From: Candidatus Iainarchaeum sp. | Lineage (GTDB): Archaea; Iainarchaeota; Iainarchaeia; Iainarchaeales; JACQJH01 | Assembly: GCA_016205145.1 (NCBI GenBank) | Contig: JACQJH010000002.1 | Coordinates: 489,696-553,695, forward strand | Reading direction: 5' to 3' | DNA length: 64,000 nt | Part shown: positions 3,691 through 34,630 of the stretch, one piece after another | Layout of the letters: every line of letters starts with the position of its first letter | Position numbering within the stretch: the stretch's first letter is position 1 | Made by a program: the position numbers and the translations under genes | Notes under the pieces: generated by a model | Told to the model about the DNA's origin: nothing | Seen by the model: only the letters and a program-made list of their open reading frames with translations | Databases searched by the model: none

Positions 3691-4857
3691 TTAAACGCTG
3701 TTTTCCGTGCTTTTTGGAAGCGGGGTTGCCGCAGTGCCATCATTGGCTGCTTTTTCCACGCCATTGGCGTTGCCCGTGCCATCCGTGCCGGCCGGGGCTG
3801 GCGGGGCGTTTTTTTTGCCGGAATCCTTTTTCAGTTCGCGCTGGTAAAACGAGACGGGATGGGAAACATTGCAGTCTTTTCCTTTCGGGCAAAAGCCGTA
3901 TTCCCTGACTTTTTTGCACGCCGGCGCGGACATCTGCTTTCCTACAATCCTCTTGACCTGGTATGCGGTCATCTTGCGGCTGAAATTCGGGGTTTTCGAG
4001 TAAAGCTCGACTATGTCCTCTTCGGGCATGCCGATTGACGACAAGAAGGCGGCAATGAAAAACCTGCCCATGTGCGGAACGTTTTTCCCTTCCAGCAAAT
4101 CAGAGTAAAGCGATGCCATGCAGTCCGGAAAAAGGTTGGGGTCGATTTTGCCCGACAGCTTGAGCTCGAAATCGCGTTCGCGCAAAGAGTTGAGGTGCGA
4201 GGAAACCTGCGACGCAATGCGCTTGAACGCGTTCGGCACTGCCGGCTGTTGGCCGGAAACGGATTCGAAAACGTTCCAGTAAACCTTTTCCGCCAGGAAA
4301 TGGCAGAACCCATTCTCGTCGAAAAAAACCCTGCCATCGGAAACCTTCTGGTTGACAAGCTTGAGGCTTTCGTCCCTGAAGCCTATGGACAGAAAATCCG
4401 GCAATGCAACTGAAACGAAAAAATCGGGGGAATCGGAAAGCGATGCGCTTATGCCAAGTTCGCCTGCAAGCTCCTGCGATGCCTTGCCGCGGTCCGGCTC
4501 ATCCTGCAAATTCTTAAACGTGTTTTTTGCGGTCCACGAGGCGAACTTCTTGTCCGCCTGCCCGTTTTTCATCTGCCCGAGAATGATTTTGGCGGCCGGA
4601 AAAGCCATTATTTCGCGTTCAAGGATTTCCTCCGATGAAACGTGTTCCAGGGGCTGCTGCTTGTCCTTCCACGCGCTCACGATCATGAAGACCGCGCGCT
4701 CTATTACGGGCCTGTTCTCGGCGGTTTCGTCAAGCGAAACATTGCTGTCCTTCAGTATGCGCATTGCGGCTGAGGAAAAAGGGTATTTCTGCGCGAACAA
4801 AAGATCCTGCGAAACCGGCATACAGGGAAGAATGCCTGAAAAACAATAAATAACCAT
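3691..4857 (-). CDS. priL: DNA primase large subunit PriL
   Basis: 388 aa. The C-terminal cysteine cluster (PACKKVREYGFCPKGKDC) fits an Fe-S domain, and it is adjacent to priS. The start is uncertain, and an unusual low-complexity Ala/Gly/Thr/Asn-rich tail follows. Confidence 0.75.
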   Translation of the reverse strand: MVIYCFSGILPCMPVSQDLLFAQKYPFSSAAMRILKDSNVSLDETAENRPVIERAVFMIVSAWKDKQQPLEHVSSEEILEREIMAFPAAKIILGQMKNGQADKKFASWTAKNTFKNLQDEPDRGKASQELAGELGISASLSDSPDFFVSVALPDFLSIGFRDESLKLVNQKVSDGRVFFDENGFCHFLAEKVYWNVFESVSGQQPAVPNAFKRIASQVSSHLNSLRERDFELKLSGKIDPNLFPDCMASLYSDLLEGKNVPHMGRFFIAAFLSSIGMPEEDIVELYSKTPNFSRKMTAYQVKRIVGKQMSAPACKKVREYGFCPKGKDCNVSHPVSFYQRELKKDSGKKNAPPAPAGTDGTGNANGVEKAANDGTAATPLPKSTENSV

Positions 4858-4924
4858 CCCGGACGCTAAAAGCTTAAAAGCCGGCAGACGAAAATGCTTA
4901 TGGCCGAAAGGCGAAAACCTGAAC

Positions 4925-5287
4925 GTGGAAGAAATGCCAGCAAGAACAGAGAGAAACGGAAACAGAAACGGGCGGCCGGAAAAGCCAAAGCCGGCAAGAC
5001 TCGGATTTTTTTTGCGAAGGAAAGCGGTTTCCGCCGAAAGAAGACTTTCAGCACAGGTGGCCGATGTTCAACTGCTGGAAAAGCGACTTGCCGGGGAAGA
5101 AAACGACGACAAGCGCAACGCCCTGCAGGCAATGCTTGGCTTGCGCCGGAAACAAGCTGCTTCGGCAATCCGCAGGGAAATGCCCGCACTCGAAGAAATG
5201 GCGGGAAGGCTCGAAGGCCTGCAGTCGGAAGAAGCGGAGCGCATTGCGCAAAAAATCAGGCAAATCATTGAATTCGGGCAGAATTGA
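4925..5287 (+). CDS. hypothetical highly charged coiled-coil protein
   Basis: 120-aa ORF in the priL-PCNA intergenic space. The second half is a plausible charged helix (LEKRLAGEENDDKRNALQAMLGLRRKQ...). The start is uncertain and an alternative Lys/Arg-rich frame (4894..5271) exists. Confidence 0.3.
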   Translation: MEEMPARTERNGNRNGRPEKPKPARLGFFLRRKAVSAERRLSAQVADVQLLEKRLAGEENDDKRNALQAMLGLRRKQAASAIRREMPALEEMAGRLEGLQSEEAERIAQKIRQIIEFGQN

Positions 5288-25836: not shown

Positions 25837-27516
25837 ATGCCCACACTTGAAATCTCAAAATCCGATTTGGAAAGCCTTTGCGGAAAAAAGTTTTCGCCTG
25901 CCGAGCTGGAAGAGGCATTGCTTTGCGTGAAAGGCGAACTGGAATTAGTTGAGGGTGACAGGCTGCGCGTTGACGTCAAGGAAACCAACCGCCCGGACTT
26001 CTGGAGCACGGAGGGAATTGCGAGGCAGGTAAAAGGTTTTTTGGGAAAGGAAAAGGGCCTGCCAAAATTTTCCGTCAAAAAGGGAAGGGTTGAAATCTTT
26101 GTTGACAAAAGCGTTGAAAAAATCCGCCCGAAAATCGCGGGCGCGGTCGTCTGGGACGTGAAGGTAACGCCGAAACTGCTTGAGCAGATGATCCAATTGC
26201 AGGAAAAGGTCACGCTCACTTTCGGCAGGCGCAGGAAAGAGGCTGCGATCGGATTGTACGATTTTGACAGGATGAAGCCGCCAATACATTACAAGGCATT
26301 CCATCCGAGAAAGCTGAAATTCACTCCGCTTGACTTCAAAAACGAATTGGACTTGGACGAGATTCTGGAATTGCACCCCAAAGGCAGGGAATACGCGCAC
26401 CTTCTCAAGGACTTTCCTGCTTATCCGATTGTCATCGATTCCGCGAAAAATGTTGCAAGCATGCCGCCGGTAATCAACTCCGATTTCACGGGCAAGGTCA
26501 CTGAAAATACAAGAAACCTGTTTGTCGAAGTTACAGGTTCCGACCAGAACGCGGTGAACGTCGCGTTATGCGTGATGGTTTCCGCCTTGGCGGACAGGAA
26601 AGGCATTGTTGAAAGCGTTTCCGTGAAATACGGGAACAAAAAAATCGTTACACCTGACTTTTCCCCGAAAAAAATTCTGATAGGGCTGGATTACATCAAC
26701 GATATTTCCGGCCTCGAACTTTCGCAGAAGCAGGCAATCGAACTGCTCAAAAAAAGCCGCGTGGACGCGAAACCGAAAGGCAAAAGCATCGAAGTTTCGT
26801 ATCCTTCTTTCAGGCAGGACATACTGCATCCGGTCGATGTGGCAGAGGACATAATTGTTGCGTTCGGATACAACAAAATAAATCCGCTGCCGGTGAATGT
26901 TCCGACGATTGGCGCGGAAATGCAGGAAGCGAAACTGCATGAAATTGCCAGGGAAATTTGCGTCGGATTGTGCCTGCAGGAAGTCCTCACGTTTACCTTG
27001 ACGTCAAGGGAAAAGCAGGAGAAACTGATGGGGCTCAAGGGCGAAAGCTTTTCGGAAAAGCTTGCAAAAGAGGCCATGGGCGAAAGCTTTGTCGAAATCC
27101 TCAACCCGGTTTCCGAAAACTGGGCCGTTTACAGGAAAATGCTTGTGCCGGAACTGCTCGACTTCCTGGCAAAAAACAAGAACGTCGAATACCCGCAGAG
27201 GATATTTGAAATCGGAAAGGTTGTCAGCGAAAACCCGGAGAACGACAACGGAGTCGAGGAAAGAAATGTTCTGGCGGTTGCGATTGCAGGCCGCAAAACC
27301 AATTTCACTGAAATAAAGTCACTGCTCGAGGCAGTATGCTCAAACCTGGGCGTGAAGTGCCGGCTCGCGGAATCAAAAAGGGGGTTCCTCAGGAAGGGCA
27401 TGTCCGCGGAAATAACGGTTGAAGGAAAAAAAGGGTTTTTAGGCGAAGTCTCGGAGGAAACCCTGAAAGCCTTCGGGTTGGAGATGCCGGCAACGGTACT
27501 GGAAATGGAAATCTAA
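25837..27516 (+). CDS. pheT: phenylalanine--tRNA ligase beta subunit (archaeal type)
   Basis: Starts MPTLEISKSDLESL. B3/B4 and B5 domains followed by the catalytic-like domain, 559 aa. Confidence 0.85.
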   Translation: MPTLEISKSDLESLCGKKFSPAELEEALLCVKGELELVEGDRLRVDVKETNRPDFWSTEGIARQVKGFLGKEKGLPKFSVKKGRVEIFVDKSVEKIRPKIAGAVVWDVKVTPKLLEQMIQLQEKVTLTFGRRRKEAAIGLYDFDRMKPPIHYKAFHPRKLKFTPLDFKNELDLDEILELHPKGREYAHLLKDFPAYPIVIDSAKNVASMPPVINSDFTGKVTENTRNLFVEVTGSDQNAVNVALCVMVSALADRKGIVESVSVKYGNKKIVTPDFSPKKILIGLDYINDISGLELSQKQAIELLKKSRVDAKPKGKSIEVSYPSFRQDILHPVDVAEDIIVAFGYNKINPLPVNVPTIGAEMQEAKLHEIAREICVGLCLQEVLTFTLTSREKQEKLMGLKGESFSEKLAKEAMGESFVEILNPVSENWAVYRKMLVPELLDFLAKNKNVEYPQRIFEIGKVVSENPENDNGVEERNVLAVAIAGRKTNFTEIKSLLEAVCSNLGVKCRLAESKRGFLRKGMSAEITVEGKKGFLGEVSEETLKAFGLEMPATVLEMEI

Positions 27517-28919
27517 AAGAGCTTTGTCTGCTTTCCGGTTTCTTCTTCCGGCGCAGCCTGTTTTTCTTCCGCTTTTTCTGCCGGCTCGGGCACTTGCGTT
27601 TTTTGCAGGAATTTTCCGTCTACTCCCGCAAGGGCAGTCCTTTTTTCCAATAAGGATTTTGCCCTGATTTCCTGCGCCTGCTCCAGAATTGTTTTCACTT
27701 TTTTTGTTTCCGGTTTCGTTTCAAGCATGAAAGCGATTTCGTTTTCGTCCAGGTCGAAAGCCGCGGCGAGCCTTGGCGCAAACTCCTTGTTTTCGAACAG
27801 CATTTTGATGAAGGCGAGGTCGTGCACCATCACTTCTTTCGACGACGAATGCATTTTGCCGCCGATTTTTTTGCACATTCCCGCCTTGAGGGCCTTTTCA
27901 GCGCGGCCCGAGGAAAGCGTTCTCAGCAGCCTTGGGAACTGGTATTTTGCCCAGCCATGGTAGTCGTTGCTCCGCGAAAGCGCAACCCCCGCAGTGGAAA
28001 GGTCGGCGGCGTATTTCATCAGCACGTAATTCTGGCGCCGGAAAATCCTGCCGTTGAAAATGCTTGCCTTCGACAGGCAGTCGAAGCCCGCGGCCAGGTC
28101 TTCCTGCTTGGTGAACTCAACGGGAATGTTTTCCTCGACCCATCTTTCAAGCAGGTCCTGCGGAACCTCGCTTTCAAAGCGCGCACTCTGGCACTCGGCA
28201 AAGGTTTTCGCGCGGAAAATGCGCTGGAGAACGCTGAAAATGTTGTCCTGCCTGTTCCTTGAACCGAGGCCTTTCACGCTTTCCATTGAAACCCCGTCTG
28301 CGAGTGCCTGCAAATCAAGCAGTGCCGAGCGCAAATCACCGGCAGAGTTCTTTGCAAGCTCTTTCAGGGCTTCGTGGTCGAATGGAATGCTTTCCTTTTC
28401 GCAGATCTCGCCAAGGCGCTTTGCAATTGAAAGGTAATTTATTTTCTTGAACTGCACCAACTCCGCGGCCTGGCGCACAGGCCCGAGCTTCTGGTTCTCG
28501 TAAATGTCGTTTGCCGTGAGAATGACCGGGTTCTGCGATTCGCGGATGATTGAAAGGATCGCCCCAGCGCCGCCCCTGTCAACTGATTGCAGGCCGTCGA
28601 TTTCATCCAGCAGCACAAGCCGTTTCTGCCCTGAAAGGCTTGAGCCCTGCGAAGCCGCGCCTGCAAGCTTTTCGATTACGTCCTTCGAGCGCAGGTCGCT
28701 TGCATTCATTTCAAAGACCGACCAGCCGGAAAGTTTCGCGGTCAGCAGTGCAAGGCACGTTTTTCCCGTTCCGGTTGAGCCATACAAAAGCAGTGCCTTG
28801 CCTTTTTTGCCCGCATTCCAGTCGTCAGCCCATCTTCGCACGAATGAAACGGCTTCGGTGTTGCCCACGAATTCCGGAAAGGTTTGCGGTAAAAATTTGT
28901 CTGTGAAAAGCTCAGACAT
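27513..28919 (-). CDS. rfcL: replication factor C large subunit
   Basis: AAA+ clamp-loader motifs (LLYGSTGTGKT, DEID, sensor regions) and a charged C-terminal tail with a PCNA-binding-like end (...QTKLF). The start is set at MSELFTDKF. Confidence 0.8.
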   Translation of the reverse strand: MSELFTDKFLPQTFPEFVGNTEAVSFVRRWADDWNAGKKGKALLLYGSTGTGKTCLALLTAKLSGWSVFEMNASDLRSKDVIEKLAGAASQGSSLSGQKRLVLLDEIDGLQSVDRGGAGAILSIIRESQNPVILTANDIYENQKLGPVRQAAELVQFKKINYLSIAKRLGEICEKESIPFDHEALKELAKNSAGDLRSALLDLQALADGVSMESVKGLGSRNRQDNIFSVLQRIFRAKTFAECQSARFESEVPQDLLERWVEENIPVEFTKQEDLAAGFDCLSKASIFNGRIFRRQNYVLMKYAADLSTAGVALSRSNDYHGWAKYQFPRLLRTLSSGRAEKALKAGMCKKIGGKMHSSSKEVMVHDLAFIKMLFENKEFAPRLAAAFDLDENEIAFMLETKPETKKVKTILEQAQEIRAKSLLEKRTALAGVDGKFLQKTQVPEPAEKAEEKQAAPEEETGKQTKLF

Positions 28920-28980
28920 GAAACAATCTTGCCGGCAAAAGGGTATTATTTGTTTTGCAGGCAAAAATTGTGCGATTTGC

Positions 28981-30171
28981 ATGCTGTCAGGCATTGTCGG
29001 AAAACCGAATTCGGGCAAGAGCACTTTTTTCTGCGCTGCAACAATGGTTGACGCGGAAATCGGCAACAGGCCGTTCGTAACGATAAAGCCGAACCACGGC
29101 GTCGGCTACGTCGTTTCGGAAAATCCCGGAGTCGAAAGCCACAAGGTTCCGCAGCCCGTGAATTACAAATTCGAAAACGGCAAAAGTTATATTCCCGTGA
29201 AACTGCTTGACGTTGCCGGCCTTGTCGAAGGCGCCTGGCAGGGAAAAGGATTGGGCAACCAGTTCCTCAACGACCTGATACAGGCGGATGCCCTCATCCA
29301 CGTCCTTGACGCCTCCGGCTCCACCGACGCGGAAGGCAATGCAGTCGGCGCGGGAAACCACGATCCCGCGAAAGACGTGCTGTTCCTTGAGCGCGAAATG
29401 GATTACTGGATCAAAAGCATCCTGACGAAAAACTGGCAGAAGATTTCCAAGCAGGCGACCGTCACGAAAAAGGCCGCGGAAATCCTCGCATTGCAGCTCA
29501 CGGGTTTGGGCATAACCGAGGATGACATAAAAGAGGTGCTGAAAAAGGAAAATTTTTCCGCAGTGCCGGATGAATGGAACGAGGATGAAATTCTTCGGTT
29601 CAGTTCGAAGATTCGCGAAAAAAGCAAGCCCATGCTTATAGCCGCGAACAAGATGGATTTGCCGGCCGCGCGCGAAAACCTTGACAGGCTCAGGCACGAT
29701 TTTCCCGGCAAAATTTTCGTGGAATGCTGTGCCGAAGCCGAGCTTGCACTGCGGAAGGCGGACAGGGCCGGCGTGATAAAATATCTGCCGGGCGCAAAAG
29801 GCTTTGAAGTGCTCAAGGACCTGCCCGAAAAGCAGGTGAAGGCGCTTGACTTCATCAAGGCGGCTGTTCTCGAAAAGTTCGGTTCGACCGGCGTGCAGGA
29901 CTGCCTGAACAAAGCGGTTTTCGAACTGCTGGACCTGATAGCAGTATATCCCGTGCAGGACCAGAACAAATGGGTTTCAGGCAAGGGAAATTGCCTGCCG
30001 GACGCGTACCTTCTGAAGCGCGGCTCGAAGCCGAAAGACCTTGCGATAAAGATTCACACCGATTTCGGGCCGAAGTACATCGGCGCAATCGACTGCAAAA
30101 CGGGATTGAAGCTGGGAGAGGACGCGGAACTGAAGCACAACGACGTCGTCAAGATACTGCTCAAGAACTAA
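28981..30171 (+). CDS. Obg-like ATPase / YchF-family GTP-binding protein with C-terminal TGS domain
   Basis: Starts MLSGIVGKPNSGKSTFF (G1), G3 motif DVAGLVEGAWQGKGLGNQFL, and a C-terminal TGS-like domain. Divergent from rfcL. Confidence 0.75.
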   Translation: MLSGIVGKPNSGKSTFFCAATMVDAEIGNRPFVTIKPNHGVGYVVSENPGVESHKVPQPVNYKFENGKSYIPVKLLDVAGLVEGAWQGKGLGNQFLNDLIQADALIHVLDASGSTDAEGNAVGAGNHDPAKDVLFLEREMDYWIKSILTKNWQKISKQATVTKKAAEILALQLTGLGITEDDIKEVLKKENFSAVPDEWNEDEILRFSSKIREKSKPMLIAANKMDLPAARENLDRLRHDFPGKIFVECCAEAELALRKADRAGVIKYLPGAKGFEVLKDLPEKQVKALDFIKAAVLEKFGSTGVQDCLNKAVFELLDLIAVYPVQDQNKWVSGKGNCLPDAYLLKRGSKPKDLAIKIHTDFGPKYIGAIDCKTGLKLGEDAELKHNDVVKILLKN

Positions 30172-30277
30172 ACAGGAAAAAAAAGAACTAAAAAAAAGCA
30201 AAAAAAAACAGGAAAAGAAAAAAAAAGAAAATAAGAAAGAAACCGGGAAAGAAAAAACCCGGCAAATGAAAATCTAT
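30172..30277 (-). terminator. oligo-T (A-rich on + strand) tract downstream of the H1-like/coiled-coil gene
   Basis: About 100 bp that is more than 75% A on the + strand, so the minus-strand transcript is poly-U-rich, which is the archaeal intrinsic termination signal. It contains the CCGGG(n10)CCCGG mini-hairpin. Confidence 0.4.
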
Positions 30278-31969
30278 TCACTGGTTTTCTTTCTTGAACT
30301 TCTGCGCCTTTATTTCAGATTCGATCATTTCCGGCGTCACTGTCTGGTGGGCCAGAAGCTTGTTGCGCACGAACTCGTATGCCTTTACCGTGTCTTCCAG
30401 GTCAAGCTTGCGCTTGAAGCCGAGGCGCGCGATTTCCCTGAAGTACAGGTCGACAATGTCGTGCGCCACTTCGTCAACGCTTTTCTTTGCGATTGTCACT
30501 GTTTCCGGCTGCACTACAACCTTGGAGTCAATGACTTCCTTCAATTGCTGCTTGACTATGTCGAGCTCGTCGAAAATCCTTTTTTCGGTGAGCTTTGCCC
30601 TGTCATCATCCGATTGTGACAGGAACCTGTCCTCGAACTCGAGCATTTTGCGCCTGAGGTCGTCAACCTGCCTTGGCGAAGAATAGTCAGCCGGCAGAGC
30701 CGAAACCTTTTCTTCAAGGTCCGAGACTTTCAGCCTGATTTCCTTGACGCTTTCCGCTGAACCTGCTGTTGCAGAGGCTTCGCCGAGCTCGCTTTTCAGC
30801 CGGTCAAGCTTTTCGAAAATCCTCGCTTCGATGCCGTCGACCCTCTCATTGCTTGGCAGGCCAGCAACCTTTTCTTCAAGGCCGGAAACCCTTGCCTTCA
30901 GGTCGTTGACAGTGTCGTGCAAAGCTATTTCCTTGCTTGTCGGCGGAGCCGGCAATGGAATCGCTTCCGCAACTGCTTCCGGCTTTTTAGGCTCGGTTAT
31001 TTCGGTTTCGTTAACGGATGGCTTCGCTTCAGCCAGCACGGCAGGCCTTGCTTCGGCAACAACCGCAGGGGTTGGCCTGGCTTTTTCTTCAACCGGCGCT
31101 TCAAGCCTGTCGAGCCTGCTTTCGATTTTGCCGATCCTTATGCCGTGCACTTCCAGAGCAGAGGAAAAGTCGACAAACTTGCCCCGGATCAAAGTCTTTA
31201 TTTCCTCGACCGTGCCCTTCGTTTCCTCAGGCGGCCTTGAAACAAGCGCCTTGATTTCTGTCAGGCTCCTGGTGTTGGCTTCGACTACTCTTTCAACCTC
31301 GCCGAACTTGTCGGAGAAGCCTTTCAAATTATTTTTTGTCTGTGTTTCAAGCTTGTTGAGCGTGGTGGAAACCTTTGAAACCTTCAAAATTTCCTTTTTC
31401 AGCTTTTTCAGGGAACCGGCCTGCCTTTTTTCGCGCTTCAATGCAGCCTTCTTGTTGGCGTCAATCGTTTTTTTGACTGAGCCGACCCTTACAGCGAAAA
31501 TCTTCGAGCTGACCGGAAGCGGCTTCCTTCTCTTCACCGGCTTTTTCTGCGCGGGCCTTTTTGCAACCGCCGGCTTTACGACAGCAGGCTTTATTGCCCT
31601 TGCTTTCGCCGGCCTTGCAATCTTTCCTGCAGCCCTGGCGGGCCTTGGTTTTGCAGCAGCCCTTTTAACAGCCCTTTTAACAGAAGCTTTCACGGGCCTT
31701 GCAGTTCTTATGGCGGGTTTTTTCGCGGCCTTTCGCCTTGAAGCTCTTTTCGGCACGGCCTTTGCGACAGGCTGCCTTGCAACACCCTTTGTCTGCTCAA
31801 GCTGTTTCAGCGCCTTTTCCGCCGCCTTCCCGGCTTCAACGGCTTCCTTCACAACCGGCTTGATGTTTTCAATAGCTACCTTTTTTCGGATAAGAGCTCT
31901 CTTCGCCAAAACACCACCCCAACAAAAATTATAACATGAAGTATAGCGCATGTTTATGTTTAAAAACAT
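30278..31969 (-). CDS. histone H1-like basic (Ala/Lys/Pro/Arg-rich) N-terminal region fused to a long coiled-coil; hypothetical chromatin or structural protein
   Basis: 563-aa ORF. Residues about 60-150 are KAVPKRASRRKAAKKPAIRTARPVKASVKRAVKRAAAKPRPARAAGKIARPAKARAIKPAVVKPAVAKRPAQKKPVKRRKP. The rest is coiled-coil with an internal repeat of about 50 aa (RVSGLEEKVAGLP... / KVSDLEEKVSALP...). The true start may be a TTG about 75 nt inside, downstream of a TATA-like box at about 31925. Confidence 0.7.
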   Translation of the reverse strand: MFLNINMRYTSCYNFCWGGVLAKRALIRKKVAIENIKPVVKEAVEAGKAAEKALKQLEQTKGVARQPVAKAVPKRASRRKAAKKPAIRTARPVKASVKRAVKRAAAKPRPARAAGKIARPAKARAIKPAVVKPAVAKRPAQKKPVKRRKPLPVSSKIFAVRVGSVKKTIDANKKAALKREKRQAGSLKKLKKEILKVSKVSTTLNKLETQTKNNLKGFSDKFGEVERVVEANTRSLTEIKALVSRPPEETKGTVEEIKTLIRGKFVDFSSALEVHGIRIGKIESRLDRLEAPVEEKARPTPAVVAEARPAVLAEAKPSVNETEITEPKKPEAVAEAIPLPAPPTSKEIALHDTVNDLKARVSGLEEKVAGLPSNERVDGIEARIFEKLDRLKSELGEASATAGSAESVKEIRLKVSDLEEKVSALPADYSSPRQVDDLRRKMLEFEDRFLSQSDDDRAKLTEKRIFDELDIVKQQLKEVIDSKVVVQPETVTIAKKSVDEVAHDIVDLYFREIARLGFKRKLDLEDTVKAYEFVRNKLLAHQTVTPEMIESEIKAQKFKKENQ

Positions 31970-32005: not shown

Positions 32006-32386
32006 ATGGTTTTGGACAAGCAGGAACTCGCTTTGGAGATAACAAAAATCTACTATTACAATCTCGCATCAAAGGGCGCCAAGGAAAGCATCAACGCCGA
32101 AAACATCCTTGACACTTACAATTACGCATTGCTTTTGCTCAACGAAAAGTTGCAGGAAAGAAAGGAAACTGCAAAAGCCGCAACGGAATTGAAACTGCCG
32201 GCGGCGCCGCAGGTTTCCGAAAGCGGTTTTTCGTACACAAACCAGAAGGGCATAACATATTATCTGCACCAGAAGGGCAGGCTGTTTTACTTCTCAAAGG
32301 ACAGCAGAAGCTCAATCGTTGTCCCGCAGGGCTACCGCATAAAGGAAAACCCGCGCACCGGCCTGCCGTTCATAACGAAAAAGTGA
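32006..32386 (+). CDS. hypothetical protein
   Basis: 126-aa ORF divergent from the H1-like gene, with no recognisable motifs. Confidence 0.45.
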   Translation: MVLDKQELALEITKIYYYNLASKGAKESINAENILDTYNYALLLLNEKLQERKETAKAATELKLPAAPQVSESGFSYTNQKGITYYLHQKGRLFYFSKDSRSSIVVPQGYRIKENPRTGLPFITKK

Positions 32387-32389
32387 GGG

Positions 32390-33244
32390 CTATTCGCCAA
32401 TTGACTTTGTCAGGTCGGGCCTCACAAGCCTTCCGAGCACGTTCAGGCGCCTGAGGCTTTCAAGCAGCTGTTCCCGTGAAATGCCCAGGCGCATGACATG
32501 CGGCTCGGAAAACAGGCCGTCAAGTGTTTCAATGCCTTCCGTGCGGCACGCGCGCAAAACTTTCAAATCCTGCATTGCCTTATGCCGCGCCGGGTCGTTT
32601 GTTTCAAGCGAAAACACTGCATGGCTTTTCGGCTCCGGCCGACCGGAAGCAAACGGGCCTTCCCTGACAAGCAAATCGAATTCCCTTTTGTTCCAGGACG
32701 CGCCATAAGCGCGCGCAATCACAGCCAGTACATTCCGTTCAAATCCAACATTATCCGGATTGGAAATAACTATTTTTGCCCCTTTGCGGTTCAGAAGGCT
32801 GCGCAACAACGACAATGGCAGGCCACCGCCCCAATACAGCGGAAAAGGCTCGAATGAAACGCTCCAGTCAAACCTGTTTTTGGAAAGTGGAATCCTTGAC
32901 GCTTCACGCGTCCTGAACGAACGGATGCGCGTGCCCTCAGGATTCTGCTCCTGCAAAAGCCTTGCACGCCGCACCATGCCGGCGGAAGCGTCCGTGAAAT
33001 GGACTTCCGCCTGTTCCGCCAAAGCCTTTGCCCAATTGCCGGTGTAGCCGGCGAAAAAAAGAATTTTGCTGCCAGGCTCAATGCCGAGATGATGTAAAAG
33101 GCGCGGATCCGCAGGCACTGTTGCCTGGGCCGCTCTCACGCTCGGCACAGACCAAGGATCCGCATCAGCAAAGATTTTCACCTCGTGCGGAACAAGAAAA
33201 CGCCGTCGCCTTGCACGCGGTGGTTCCGAAGCCAAACCAATCAC
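32390..33244 (-). CDS. hypothetical protein, possible Rossmann-fold SAM-dependent methyltransferase-like
   Basis: 284 aa, Arg-rich and relatively GC-rich. Weak motif-I-like segment GSKILFFAGYTGNWAKALAEQAEVHFTDAS; immediately downstream of orc1/cdc6. Confidence 0.4.
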   Translation of the reverse strand: MIGLASEPPRARRRRFLVPHEVKIFADADPWSVPSVRAAQATVPADPRLLHHLGIEPGSKILFFAGYTGNWAKALAEQAEVHFTDASAGMVRRARLLQEQNPEGTRIRSFRTREASRIPLSKNRFDWSVSFEPFPLYWGGGLPLSLLRSLLNRKGAKIVISNPDNVGFERNVLAVIARAYGASWNKREFDLLVREGPFASGRPEPKSHAVFSLETNDPARHKAMQDLKVLRACRTEGIETLDGLFSEPHVMRLGISREQLLESLRRLNVLGRLVRPDLTKSIGE

Positions 33245-34416
33245 GCCTTTTTCTGCGCGCCGGCAACATTCGGGGAATTTCCTGCCGCGTGCAGCTTTTT
33301 CATTTCCTCTGAAAGCAATGCTGAAGAAACCGCGAGTGAAATCTTGCGGGACTTGCCATGCATTCCGCTTTCAACGAGCGGCGCGCTGACAAGGTTCAAA
33401 TGCTCAAGCTTTGAAACAATGTCGCGAAATCTCCTCAATGAAAGCTTTTGCCCGGACTTCTCCGAAAACGCCTTGAAAAGCTCGCCTGACAGCGCATCGT
33501 CATGCGAACAAAGCAATTGCAAAACCAGGAGTTCGGAATCATTCAGCGAGGGAAGGACTTTTTTGAACGGGTGCTCGTCGACAAGCGCGAACGCCTTTTT
33601 CAGGTGCAGAATGGAAACCTTCTGCGAATTCTCCTTTTCAGCTTCCTTGCCCGCGCGCCACAAACATTCAATCGCAATCCTCGCGTCCCCGCCAAGGCGC
33701 GAGGCATGGCCGGCCGCGACGTTTATGACTTCATCGTCAAGGCTTCCCGGCAGGAACGCATACTTGCACCTTTCCGCAAGTATGTCCTTCAGCTGCTTCG
33801 GTGAATAGGGGTTGAAGGCAATGTCCTGCACGTGCAATGAACTTCTCACGCGCTCGTCAAGCCTTGAAACCAGTGCGGGGTCGTTTGAAATCAGTATGAG
33901 GCCGAAGCGCTTGTCGCAAAACTCTATGACGCGCAGGAGGTCATAGAAAACCTTGGCCTCTTCCGGCTCGGCAAGCAGCTGTTCCGCCTCATCCAGCACA
34001 ACTATCGGAGCAAAATCCGCTTTTTTGAGCATTTCAAGGATTTTCGAATACACCTCGTCGGTTGCGATCCCGCGCCTCGGCACAGCCGCCTTCAAAAAGT
34101 TTGCGATTGCCGACAGGATCGAGTGGCGGGAATTGTACTCAAAGCAGTTCAGGTAAAGGCCTTTCGCCCTGTCCGAAAATTCCTCAAGCTCGTTCAAAAC
34201 GAATTTGACGCTCGCGGTCTTTCCCGTTCCGGTTTTCCCGAAAACAAAAACGTGCTGCGGCTTCTTGCCCTCTGAAACCGGTTTCAATGCAAAGACAAGC
34301 GCGTCGATTTCCGCATCCCTGTGCGGCAGGACAGCCGGCACATGCTCAGGGTACAGCACTGCCTCGCTGCGGAAAACCTGAGCTTCCCTGCCCTTTCTCT
34401 CGAAAACATTCGGCAT
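33241..34416 (-). CDS. cdc6: Orc1/Cdc6 replication initiator
   Basis: 391 aa. AAA+ Walker A VFVFGKTGTGKT, Walker B VVLDEAE, and a C-terminal winged-helix domain. Confidence 0.85.
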   Translation of the reverse strand: MPNVFERKGREAQVFRSEAVLYPEHVPAVLPHRDAEIDALVFALKPVSEGKKPQHVFVFGKTGTGKTASVKFVLNELEEFSDRAKGLYLNCFEYNSRHSILSAIANFLKAAVPRRGIATDEVYSKILEMLKKADFAPIVVLDEAEQLLAEPEEAKVFYDLLRVIEFCDKRFGLILISNDPALVSRLDERVRSSLHVQDIAFNPYSPKQLKDILAERCKYAFLPGSLDDEVINVAAGHASRLGGDARIAIECLWRAGKEAEKENSQKVSILHLKKAFALVDEHPFKKVLPSLNDSELLVLQLLCSHDDALSGELFKAFSEKSGQKLSLRRFRDIVSKLEHLNLVSAPLVESGMHGKSRKISLAVSSALLSEEMKKLHAAGNSPNVAGAQKKA

Positions 34417-34449: not shown

Positions 34450-34630
34450 GCATCGGGCGGCGGTTTCGTCCGCAGCCGGTTCCGTCCGGCTGGTTCGGAA
34501 CCAAGGCGTATCACTGTTGTGATACGCCGAGTAAGTAACATTAAAGTTTTCGGGGGCGTGCGAGACGCGGAGCTCCCTGGTCGGGATTAAGGCTTATTGC
34601 TGCTACAATAAGCCGGGTAAGCGACAGTAA
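34450..34630 (-). repeat. interspersed structured repeat family, copy or copies (inverted orientation) upstream of orc1/cdc6
   Basis: CAGCCGGTTCCGTCCGGCTGG, GGCGTATCACTGTTGTGATACGCCGAGTAAG, GGGGCGTGCGAGACGCGG, GGCTTATTGCTGCTACAATAAGCCGGGTAAGC. Confidence 0.55.

Follow-up and report, generated by a model that had tools for sequence, protein, structure and literature searches.

A highly basic Iainarchaeota protein with a previously undescribed C-terminal domain, a candidate DNA-associated scaffold encoded near cdc6

Disordered tracts that are rich in alanine, lysine or arginine, and proline and that contain no acidic residues are found in DNA-condensing proteins, namely, in the C-terminal domain of eukaryotic linker histone H1, in chlamydial Hc1/Hc2, in the tail of mycobacterial HupB, and in Pseudomonas AlgP. 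In RacA of Bacillus subtilis, an N-terminal DNA-binding module, which is a specific HTH, is followed by a coiled coil and a C-terminal partner-binding region. With regard to genomic position, the closest described system is the haloarchaeal oapABC (arvABC) cluster, which is lineage-wide, is strongly syntenic with orc1/cdc6, was of initially unknown function, and was first suspected of a role in replication (PMC7921747). This cluster encodes a small GTPase, a DUF2073 protein, and a DUF2072 zinc-ribbon protein; its product OapA turned out to be a vesicle-forming GTPase (PMC10927574). Here we compare these systems with a protein encoded in a 64,000-nucleotide stretch of DNA (the window, to which all coordinates refer) from an uncultivated Iainarchaeota (Diapherotrites) archaeon.

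The gene lies in a minus-strand ORF that is open without interruption from 30278 to 31969, and it is a genuine, conserved gene of this archaeon. Its product is identical (100%, full length) to the NCBI entry [quoted passage not shown] (MAG; P0001). Low-complexity candidates dominated a word-based homolog search with the full protein, from which three proteins (P0001 to P0003) were recovered, and full-length orthologs at 64% and 39% identity keep the N terminus, the rod, and the C-terminal domain in one frame. A search for homologs in related archaeal genomes, as proposed in the original prediction, found these full-length orthologs together with the wider domain family described below.

Although the ORF of the original prediction is real, translation most likely starts at TTG 31909, which gives a product of 543 aa rather than 563 aa (CDS 30278..31909, minus strand; stop codon at 30278-30280). 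We favor this start because it is that of NCBI model P0001, because the orthologs P0002 and P0003 begin at the equivalent position in an alignment of the three, and because a run that may serve as a Shine-Dalgarno sequence (GGGGTGGTG) lies at 31912-31920. The 20 codons that precede TTG 31909 in the reported ORF (31910..31969, minus strand) have no counterpart in the orthologs; judging from the sequence, they are probably not translated and are probably the 5' leader and promoter, with TATA-like runs at 31953-31964 (TTTAAACATAAA) and 31926-31934 (TTATAATTT) as putative promoter elements. A T-rich tract of ~100 nt follows the stop codon (30172..30277, minus strand); it has several T5 to T9 runs and a short hairpin, and its position in the convergent gap to ychF makes it a likely archaeal terminator. 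The earlier claim of an independent transcription unit agrees with this T-rich tract and with the orientation of the flanking genes (ychF convergent and a 126-aa gene divergent), which makes the gene monocistronic. Scans of the entire window for Rfam families and tRNAs gave no matches.

The protein is modular. AF2 modeled the full-length protein with low confidence (pLDDT 60.8, from an alignment of three sequences), and the single segments were predicted as follows. Residues 1 to 45 (31775..31909, minus strand) are an amphipathic helix that is (near-)invariant in the three orthologs, and AF2 places a helix at residues 2 to 40 with a pLDDT of 70 to 78. Residues 46 to 132 (31514..31774, minus strand) are a basic low-complexity tract of 87 aa, which contains 26% alanine, 21% lysine, 16% arginine, and 15% proline, has no aspartate or glutamate, and has a net charge of +32 and a pI of 12. 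It is predicted to be disordered (pLDDT of <50 over residues 40 to 124), and its length varies among the three orthologs (about 87, 70, and 25 aa). The original prediction described this region as a repeat array resembling H1, Hc1, and AlgP tails. The tract itself was confirmed, but it is not a regular array, since TRF detects one 12-nt duplication in it. That duplication is an exact tandem copy of CAGCCCTTTTAA (x2.2, 31657..31683), just as had been reported; it encodes VKRA-VKRA and is likely a trace of expansion by slippage.

The remainder of the protein had been described as ~400 residues of coiled coil. Long helical segments are indeed predicted, but the description overstates their extent, since AF2 divides this region into a rod of 138 aa, a disordered linker, five short helices, and a separate three-helix domain. 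The rod (residues 133 to 270; 31100..31513, minus strand) is conserved in the orthologs and consists of helices at residues 133 to 224 (92 residues) and 234 to 270, with a pLDDT of about 80 and hydrophobic spacing that is heptad-like by a heuristic measure. It is followed by an acidic linker of 54 aa rich in proline, glutamate, and alanine (residues 271 to 324; 30938..31099, minus strand), which varies in length among orthologs and is predicted to be disordered (AF2, residues 271 to 319), and then by a segmented helical region of ~137 aa (residues 325 to 461; 30527..30937, minus strand), for which AF2 predicts five helices of 19 to 28 residues each. This region contains the internal duplicated block that was originally reported: residues 331 to 377 align with residues 386 to 432 (30779-30919 and 30614-30754) with a local alignment score of 72, compared with 24.7 ± 4.6 for 500 shuffles. 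Part of the duplication is a lineage-specific insertion, and P0002 lacks about 26 residues there. At the DNA level, the reported pair of 50-nt direct repeats is present but is shorter than stated (about 34 aligned nt, 88% identity), and there is a second pair of 47 nt with 70% identity (30560-30606 and 30803-30849). In Pfam, the protein has weak, sub-threshold matches to coiled-coil DUFs (DUF2730 and DUF7310).

Compared with the tails of H1, Hc1/Hc2, HupB, and AlgP, the tract has the same disordered, alanine-, lysine/arginine-, and proline-rich composition, and a comparable action, charge-driven and sequence-independent binding and condensation of polyanions, would be expected of it. However, its arginine is nearly as frequent as its lysine, and it lies near the N terminus and precedes about 400 aa of other modules. 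Unlike H1 and HupB, the protein has neither a winged-helix globular domain nor an HU fold. The likeness to H1, Hc1, and AlgP is thus one of composition and does not extend to a model-level match in Pfam or NCBIfam. No Linker_histone winged helix was matched in Pfam (hmmscan, E ≤ 0.1), and AF2 predicts only helices and disorder; the Hc1/HC2 profiles (PF07382 and related) gave no match at E ≤ 0.1; and an AlgP-type KPAA array was found neither by the TRF/repeat search nor as an NCBIfam match. Pfam and NCBIfam contain no match to an SMC/Rad50-type ATPase or SMC domain in the protein. These comparisons place the protein outside the H1, Hc1/Hc2, and SMC families. No domain match to the histone fold, Alba, Cren7, Sul7d, or MC1 was found, and nothing in Pfam or NCBIfam was above the cut-off for histone, Alba, Cren7, or Sul7, in agreement with the view that this is not a standard archaeal chromatin protein. 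The order of its modules matches that of RacA and makes DNA bridging or tethering plausible, but there is no sequence or fold relationship between the two; RacA has a specific HTH where the Iainarchaeota protein has a nonspecific basic tract.

The most conserved part of the protein, which was overlooked in the original prediction, is its C-terminal domain (residues 478 to 543, ~65 aa; 30281..30478, minus strand; core motif AHDIVDLYFREIARLGFKRKLDLEDTVKAYEFV). From an alignment of 50 sequences, AF2 predicts three helices within residues 478 to 541 with a pLDDT of 88.4. In an exhaustive HMMER search, 70 of the 73 matches were through this domain alone (profile positions about 317 to 376). The domain family comprises 93 copies across 79 proteins, and the window protein matches its HMM with an E value of 2e-21. 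The core motif spans about 44 aa, A-x-x-[IL]-V-x-L-Y-F-x-E-[IV]-A-R-x-G-F-K-R-x-L-x-L-[DE]-x-x-[IV]-x-A-Y, and all of its near-invariant columns are present in the window protein. The three-helix domain has no match in Pfam, NCBIfam, PHROG, or PDB. Scans of the window protein, its neighbor, and family members against Pfam, NCBIfam, and PHROG gave nothing above the cut-off, and searches of PDB by sequence and by profile, for which the C-terminal 113 aa, the full alignment, the domain alignment, and the YNxF motif alignment served as queries, yielded matches at chance level only. We considered a histone-fold reading of the domain and rejected it on the basis of the helix lengths and the absence of histone matches. 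In a genome scan the family was found at 66 species-level loci, nearly all of which are labeled Iainarchaeum, ainarchaeum, Forterrea, Diapherotrites, or unclassified archaeon; a scan of viral contigs found no relatives, and no description of the family was found in the literature on Diapherotrites/DPANN chromatin, Iainarchaeota cdc6, or archaeal H1-like coiled-coil proteins. The domain therefore defines an unannotated, previously undescribed family that is almost restricted to Iainarchaeota.

What precedes the domain differs among its relatives, whose N-terminal regions contain 26 to 46% lysine plus arginine. The order of basic tail, coiled coil, and domain recurs in P0005, P0006, and P0008, but neither the tails nor the rods of these proteins can be aligned with those of the window protein; P0006 also has an HC2 match of 29.6 bits, which is below the cut-off of 40. 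Many long paralogs carry K/R-rich repeats and one to three copies of a motif, K/R-x-x-S-[AE]-Y-N-x-F-[IVM]...G-K-T-F...A-V..W (the YNxF motif), that resembles the "PSAYNRFI" start of YABBY proteins and helix 1 of HMG boxes. YABBY is matched by 9 of the 28 motif copies (best E value, 0.008) and HMG_box_2 by 2 of the 28, all below threshold, and the motif alignment has no PDB profile match. In contrast, the YNxF motif is wholly absent from the window protein, as it is from all of P0001 to P0008 by both regular expression and alignment, and the KTRTI-type basic repeats of the long proteins were not found in the window protein either. When it is compared with the typical long proteins by hhalign, the domain aligns with 97% probability and nothing outside the domain aligns.

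A second copy of the domain is encoded next door. The 126-aa gene (32006..32386, plus strand), which is divergent from the gene under study, carries a divergent copy at residues 3 to 54 (local hmmsearch E value, 8.7e-7), and its protein family aligns with the domain alignment by hhalign with a probability of 96.4% and an E value of 1.2e-9. The C-terminal half of the 126-aa protein is a separate module, YYLHQKGRLFYFSKD...ENxRTGLPF. The two genes are conserved together in L001 and L002. In the usual layout of the family, cdc6 is followed by a long, very basic protein whose domain is C-terminal, an ~100-aa protein whose domain is N-terminal, and ychF. Compared with this, the domain-bearing second gene of the window is divergent in sequence, is on the opposite strand, and lies upstream rather than downstream. 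The window thus contains a rearranged pair, in which the protein under study takes the place of the long protein and the divergent 126-aa gene provides the second domain copy. Other arrangements also occur: at 17 loci (L052 to L068) there is a single protein whose domain scores as the short type, mostly behind a long basic N-terminal region; P0009 has two domains in a row, the first of the long type and the second of the short type; and at L087 a tandem two-domain protein is found between cdc6 and ychF. These forms favor the view that the long and short proteins work jointly.

We consider it about an even bet (probability of roughly 0.5) that the window protein is a DNA-associated, self-associating scaffold that pairs with the small partner, and that it is a modular, lineage-specific structural protein of Iainarchaeota. 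The basic tract would bind DNA nonspecifically through charge, as the tails of H1, Hc1, or HupB do, and the rods, the two helical regions on either side of the acidic linker, would mediate dimerization or higher-order self-association. Self-associated rods would give an assembly with several DNA-binding tails that could bridge or condense DNA. The C-terminal domain would be a protein-protein module that either pairs with the small partner's copy or anchors the two proteins to a shared target. Because the cdc6 neighborhood is invariant, the most plausible site of action of the module is the chromosome, where it would serve nucleoid organization or origin-proximal architecture; the filament and nucleoid-anchoring roles of the original prediction are conjectures of the same kind. 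Points that weigh against this scaffold reading are the low confidence of the full-length AF2 model, the absence from the window protein of the YNxF motif of its paralogs, and three observations described below, namely, the synteny of the whole gene block, the Oap/Arv precedent, and the negative search for origin repeats. Since Diapherotrites encode histones (PMC6136690), the protein would be an accessory factor and not the main chromatin protein.

The same neighborhood raises the question of whether the family is instead an accessory of replication initiation, which would bind either Orc1/Cdc6 or the DNA of the origin and would help in loading, tethering, or regulating the initiator as a phylum-specific functional analog of WhiP/Cdt1-like or origin-associated factors. 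In the window, the gene order is cdc6 (33241..34416, minus strand; Pfam Cdc6_lid, AAA_22, and Cdc6_C, and synteny), a methyltransferase-like gene, the 126-aa gene, the gene under study, and ychF (which ends at 30171), within a PheT-Cdc6-[pair]-YchF-RFC-L string. The family is directly downstream of cdc6 on the same strand at 57 of the 66 species-level genome loci, with a median gap of 106 nt; 60 of these loci are informative in having ≥1 kb of upstream sequence, which makes the count 57 of 60, and the same arrangement is present at 26 of the 27 metagenome loci with enough upstream sequence. In some species (L042, L045, L047, L051, L054, L066, and L070) the minimal unit is cdc6 plus the short domain protein, and the same block contains a replication gene, that for the RFC large subunit. 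However, the whole PheT-Cdc6-...-YchF-RFC-L block is syntenic throughout the phylum, so that a position beside cdc6 may be a matter of inheritance and not of a functional link, and the case of Oap/Arv is a precedent for being misled by synteny with orc1 (PMC10927574). The Iainarchaeota pair has no homology to that cluster, and neither the window protein nor its neighbor has a small GTPase, DUF2073, or DUF2072 match in Pfam or NCBIfam; the pair consists of highly basic proteins that have a three-helix domain in common and are encoded downstream of cdc6 and on its strand. Further points against an initiation role are that the family has no detectable similarity to known replication factors in Pfam, NCBIfam, or PDB; that in the window a SAM-dependent methyltransferase-like gene (32390..33244, minus strand; Pfam Methyltransf_25), which occurs in this genome only and is absent from L001 and all other loci, separates the pair from cdc6, and transcription is independent; that the genes for P0006 and P0008, which share the architecture, do not adjoin cdc6; and that neither ORB-like repeats nor an origin were detected in the part of the window around cdc6, nor any ORB-like repeat families in six intergenic regions of other loci. 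Taken together, these observations make an initiation accessory rather unlikely. We are similarly doubtful of a more specific form of the idea, according to which the domain proteins would be a phylum-specific Orc1/Cdc6 partner module whose long DNA-binding and small subunits heterodimerize via the shared domain and organize or tether origin-proximal DNA or regulate the initiator; the window protein would then be derived, with an H1-like tail and an extended rod in place of the YABBY/HMG-like module.

RNA, polyphosphate, and acidic proteins are further ligands of polycationic tracts, and it is composition only that suggests DNA binding for this one. The scaffold might therefore act elsewhere, either with another polyanion such as RNA, ribosomes, or polyphosphate as the ligand of the tract (a proposal made for AlgP) or as a coiled-coil filament of the cytoskeleton, the division machinery, or the envelope, in which case the position beside cdc6 would be a historical accident. 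The long helical segments and the weak DUF matches are consistent with this. There are also precedents, namely, an H1-like protein that is reported to organize polyP granules (PMC9239181) and the vesiculation GTPase OapA (PMC10927574). Nevertheless, the long paralogs bear modules typical of DNA-architectural proteins (the YABBY- and HMG-box-like YNxF motif and the K/R-rich repeats), neither a signal peptide nor a transmembrane segment nor a membrane-targeting module was found in the window protein from its composition or the AF2 model, and the synteny with cdc6 extends across the phylum and is unusually tight, so that we regard a role away from DNA as improbable.

Finally, a spurious, frameshifted, or misassembled gene whose basic tract comes from the wrong reading frame, as might be suspected from the shadow ORF that the low-complexity sequence creates on the opposite strand (30744-31934, plus strand, 396 aa) and from the appearance of the relative L002 as two ORFs, is refuted almost with certainty by the ortholog alignment, in which the modules are conserved in frame, the basic tract is kept in the independent orthologs P0002 and P0003, and the domain belongs to a large family. 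A pseudogene or frameshift in L002 was itself rejected, since what separates the two ORFs is a stretch of 10 N, a scaffold gap that falls at the position of the proline-, glutamate-, and alanine-rich linker.

The DPANN archaea, including Iainarchaeota, have small genomes and are uncultivated, and to our knowledge almost nothing is known of their chromosome organization and replication beyond homology to model archaea. A family that has no counterpart in Pfam, NCBIfam, PHROG, or PDB and that is found beside orc1/cdc6 in nearly every sampled species offers a concrete, testable candidate for a chromosome or replication factor specific to this lineage. Within the family, the window protein illustrates an exchange of modules, in which an H1-like tail and rod stand in for a YABBY/HMG-like motif while the C-terminal domain and the genomic position are retained. 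If the proposed role is refuted, the family would be a second case, after Oap/Arv, of misleading synteny with orc1. If the domain proteins are indeed partners of Orc1/Cdc6, they would represent a new class of archaeal replication or chromosome-organization factor, possibly with an archaeal DNA-binding motif of the YABBY/HMG type, and either this role or one in DNA bridging would bring a new class of protein to the biology of archaeal chromatin and replication.

The target gene lies in an uninterrupted ORF of 563 codons (30278 to 31969, minus strand). The public record identical to its product is a protein of 543 aa ([quoted passage not shown] on a 637-kb contig), which begins at a TTG at 31909. 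The orthologues P0002 and P0003 have the same opening residues as this model, a Shine-Dalgarno-like run (GGGGTGGTG) lies 2 to 10 nt upstream of the TTG, and TATA-like AT-rich runs are found farther upstream. Based on these features, the first 20 codons of the ORF are probably leader, so that the reading frame of the original prediction stands, but its length is more likely 543 aa than 563 aa. The stop codon is directly followed by a T-rich tract of ~100 nt, as predicted. Since ychF is convergent with the target and a 126-aa ORF is divergent from it, the gene is monocistronic by arrangement, which bears out its description as an independent transcription unit. An antisense "shadow" ORF through the target (30744 to 31934, plus strand; 396 aa, rich in A, S, L, and F) was rejected as a gene, being a by-product of biased composition.

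On the basis of AF2 and an alignment of three full-length orthologues (64% and 39% identity), we distinguish six parts of the protein. The N terminus is a conserved helix (residues 1 to 45). It is followed by a disordered basic tract (residues 46 to 132; ~87, 70, and 25 aa among the orthologues), a conserved helical rod (residues 133 to 270) in which one helix is predicted to span 92 residues, a disordered and variable Pro/Glu/Ala acidic linker (residues 271 to 324), five short helices bearing an internal duplication (residues 325 to 461), and the most conserved segment of the protein (residues 478 to 543). The ~400-residue coiled coil originally proposed was thus overstated. The Ala/Lys/Pro/Arg-rich region is confirmed: the basic tract contains 26% A, 21% K, 16% R, and 15% P, with no acidic residues and a net charge of +32, and the predicted tandem 12-mer is present as exact copies at 31657 to 31683, encoding VKRA-VKRA. 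The internal protein duplication is also genuine, with an alignment score of 72 versus 24.7 ± 4.6 for shuffles; in the DNA it is shorter than the 50-nt direct repeats proposed, covering ~34 nt with 88% identity, and another repeat pair (47 nt, 70% identity) is found further downstream. P0002 lacks an insertion of ~26 residues within the 325-to-461 segment. A fourth orthologue, at the locus of a relative (L002), is seemingly split (272 aa and 184 aa, P0004). We rejected a true split, because the interruption is a run of 10 N (~1441 to 1450) exactly within the Pro/Glu/Ala linker, which suggests that this low-complexity linker is difficult to assemble.

An exhaustive HMMER search with a profile of target residues 129 to 543 against 1.84 billion representative proteins gave 73 matches, all of which, except for 3 close orthologues, are confined to the last 45 to 135 profile positions. 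A locally built HMM of this C-terminal domain finds 93 copies among 79 proteins. In a 50-sequence alignment (A3), the core comprises ~44 residues (EEvA.rlV.LYF.EIARLGFKR.LDLD..INAY.Y.L) with near-invariant A, Y, F, E, A, R, G, K, R, L, L, A, and Y, and AF2 on A3 gives a confident three-helix domain (pLDDT, 88.4). The domain is roughly charge neutral and has a conserved hydrophobic/aromatic face. That of the target is a separate subtype (AH.IV...LEDT...VTPEMIE), common to the relatives P0005 to P0008.

Relatives were sought, as the original prediction had proposed, in one genome for each GTDB species, and 66 loci were returned, nearly all from MAGs labeled Iainarchaeum, ainarchaeum, Forterrea, Diapherotrites, AR10, or unclassified archaeon; viral contigs scanned for the domain family gave no matches. 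When ORFs were called in the loci and searched with the neighboring proteins of the window, a conserved gene string emerged: PheT, Cdc6, a long protein (~250 to 410 aa, domain C-terminal), a short protein (~80 to 130 aa, domain N-terminal), YchF (opposite strand), and the RFC large subunit. A same-strand cdc6 lies upstream in 57 of the 66 loci, or in 57 of 60 when only loci with ≥1 kb of upstream sequence are counted; the median gap is 106 nt (≤200 nt in 35 loci). An independent metagenome scan agrees (26 of 27 informative loci). P0005 (251 aa), which is more distant and has the target's architecture, is directly downstream of cdc6; P0006 and P0008, equally of this architecture and more distant, are not. 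At L056 (CP064981, a complete Iainarchaeum chromosome; 3723 to 5237), the domain gene is within ~400 bp of deposited position 1, and no cdc6 was seen in the 3.7 kb upstream. In a species subgroup (L042, L045, L047, L051, L054, L066, and L070), cdc6 is followed by the short protein alone (98 to 121 aa, K-rich N terminus; gene at ~4900 to 5250 in each), and PheT follows on the opposite strand. What is minimally conserved beside cdc6 is therefore a short-type domain protein with the tail ..EE..L..E[TS]K..LFP.

The window carries this string inverted: Cdc6 (33241 to 34416), a methyltransferase insert, the 126-aa gene, the target, YchF, RFC large subunit, and PheT. The inserted gene (32390 to 33244, minus strand) is SAM-methyltransferase-like (Methyltransf_25), with a 4-nt overlap between its stop and the cdc6 region. 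Neither L001, a close relative with otherwise the arrangement of the window, nor any other locus examined has this gene, which makes it look lineage specific, an insertion into a string that is conserved elsewhere. The mechanical ORFs for RFC large subunit (27513 to 29066, minus strand) and the YchF/YGR210-like GTPase (28504 to 30171, plus strand) overlap by ~560 nt. Since homologue alignments begin at about residues 50 and 160, respectively, we place the true starts near 28919 and 28981; the genes are then divergent and separated by a spacer of ~60 nt. Between cdc6 (start at 34416, minus strand) and a 59-aa ORF/endonuclease IV is a cluster of GC-rich, near-perfect hairpins (34455 to 34610; e.g., GGCGTATCAC-n4-GTGATACGCC and GGCTTATTG-n6-CAATAAGCC) with folding z-scores of −3.6 (plus strand) and −5.6 (minus strand). 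This region has no Rfam match and its sequence is unconserved in L001; candidate explanations are an ncRNA, clustered terminators, or palindromes related to an origin.

The divergently transcribed 126-aa ORF (32006 to 32386, plus strand) matches the domain HMM (E = 8.7e-7), and when its four homologues are combined into a profile, this profile aligns with A3 at 96.4% probability (E = 1.2e-9). By these profile matches, the window holds the long and small domain pair found elsewhere in the phylum, rearranged and diverged. Residues ~73 to 126 of this neighbor form a conserved module (YTN..G..YYLHQKGRLFYFSKD....P.GY.v.EN.RTGLPF..KK) that also stands alone in the 71-aa P0083 and has no match in Pfam even at E ≤ 10, which makes it a small domain without a family assignment. 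In 17 loci (L052 to L068), the domain of a single protein scores as short type, and most of these proteins have a long basic stretch N-terminal to it; P0009 has tandem domains, long type and then short type; and at L087 a tandem two-domain protein fills the slot between cdc6 and ychF. This Rosetta-stone-type evidence, which is not proof, suggests that long and short proteins work together. The target has the domain motif, the cdc6-ychF position, and the paired paralogue by which we define the family, and is a member of it. Both the domain and its cdc6-linked module are previously undescribed.

Outside the domain, hhalign gives no alignment of the target family to typical long proteins. Even so, these long proteins resemble one another in character, with N-terminal regions of 26 to 46% K+R, short coiled coils, and KTRTI-VK-VP-type basic repeats. 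In L012 (3702 to 4940), L024 (3751 to 4995), and similar loci, up to ~8 such repeats (KYRTRTIKAKPEI / KTRTIVKRVP) stand in tandem, and their alternation of charged with hydrophobic residues suggests an extended basic beta-like array, for DNA binding or as a spacer. Most long members, though not the target, carry 1 to 3 copies of a YNxF motif (..KR.PSAYNQFI..Q...GKTF.QAV.LW). It occurs as KRRPSAYNQFIGSQMRLGKTF.QAVALWK in L049 (4156 to 4971; AR10 complete genome) and in ~40 other loci (e.g., L012 3702 to 4940 and L013 3548 to 4714). Sub-threshold matches to the plant YABBY domain (9 of 28 copies; best E, 0.008) plus the HMG box (2 of 28), with no match in the PDB, offer as a lead only that this may be an unrecognized archaeal DNA-binding motif. 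In P0006, the domain occurs together with a long coiled coil and a tail that is H1/HC2-like (PF07382, sub-threshold). The recurrence of polycationic region, rod, and domain with nonhomologous fillings argues that this architecture is itself under selection.

On the demonstrated modules, family, synteny, and partner paralogue we base the reading, with a probability of about 0.5, that the target is a DNA-associated scaffold. The basic tract would bind DNA electrostatically, and the rods would self-associate into an assembly with several tails, able to bridge or condense DNA. Through its three-helix domain, the target would most likely contact another protein, either the small partner or a target common to both, and the cdc6 neighborhood would point to a chromosomal role. 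Since histones are encoded by Diapherotrites (PMC6136690), the target can be no more than an accessory factor of chromatin. A more specific reading, with the domain family as an Orc1/Cdc6 accessory factor, we consider unlikely. Similarly doubtful is a scaffold not acting on DNA, with the target binding RNA or polyP or serving a cytoskeletal role. Caution is due in reading function from this position: because synteny in the phylum extends over the entire block, the adjacency may be inherited rather than functional, and haloarchaeal oapABC genes, which also adjoin an origin, were once suspected of a replication role (PMC7921747), yet OapA is a vesiculating GTPase (PMC10927574). Searches of the cdc6 surroundings in the window and of six intergenic regions at other loci found no origin repeats. 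A frameshift or assembly artefact is excluded, since the basic tract is in frame and is kept as a basic tract in independent assemblies.

Among known proteins, the target would work like the H1, Hc1/Hc2, HupB-tail, and AlgP group but is not a member: the predicted likeness holds for composition and fails for family profiles and globular domains, which the target lacks. The heads of SMC/Rad50 are absent, and the module order recalls that of RacA-type DNA-binding coiled-coil adaptors. The target may well be a basic-tailed, DNA-associated scaffold with a new domain in a new cdc6-linked module. For these uncultivated organisms, the domain family and its cdc6 synteny are surprising and testable, with a function that we infer.
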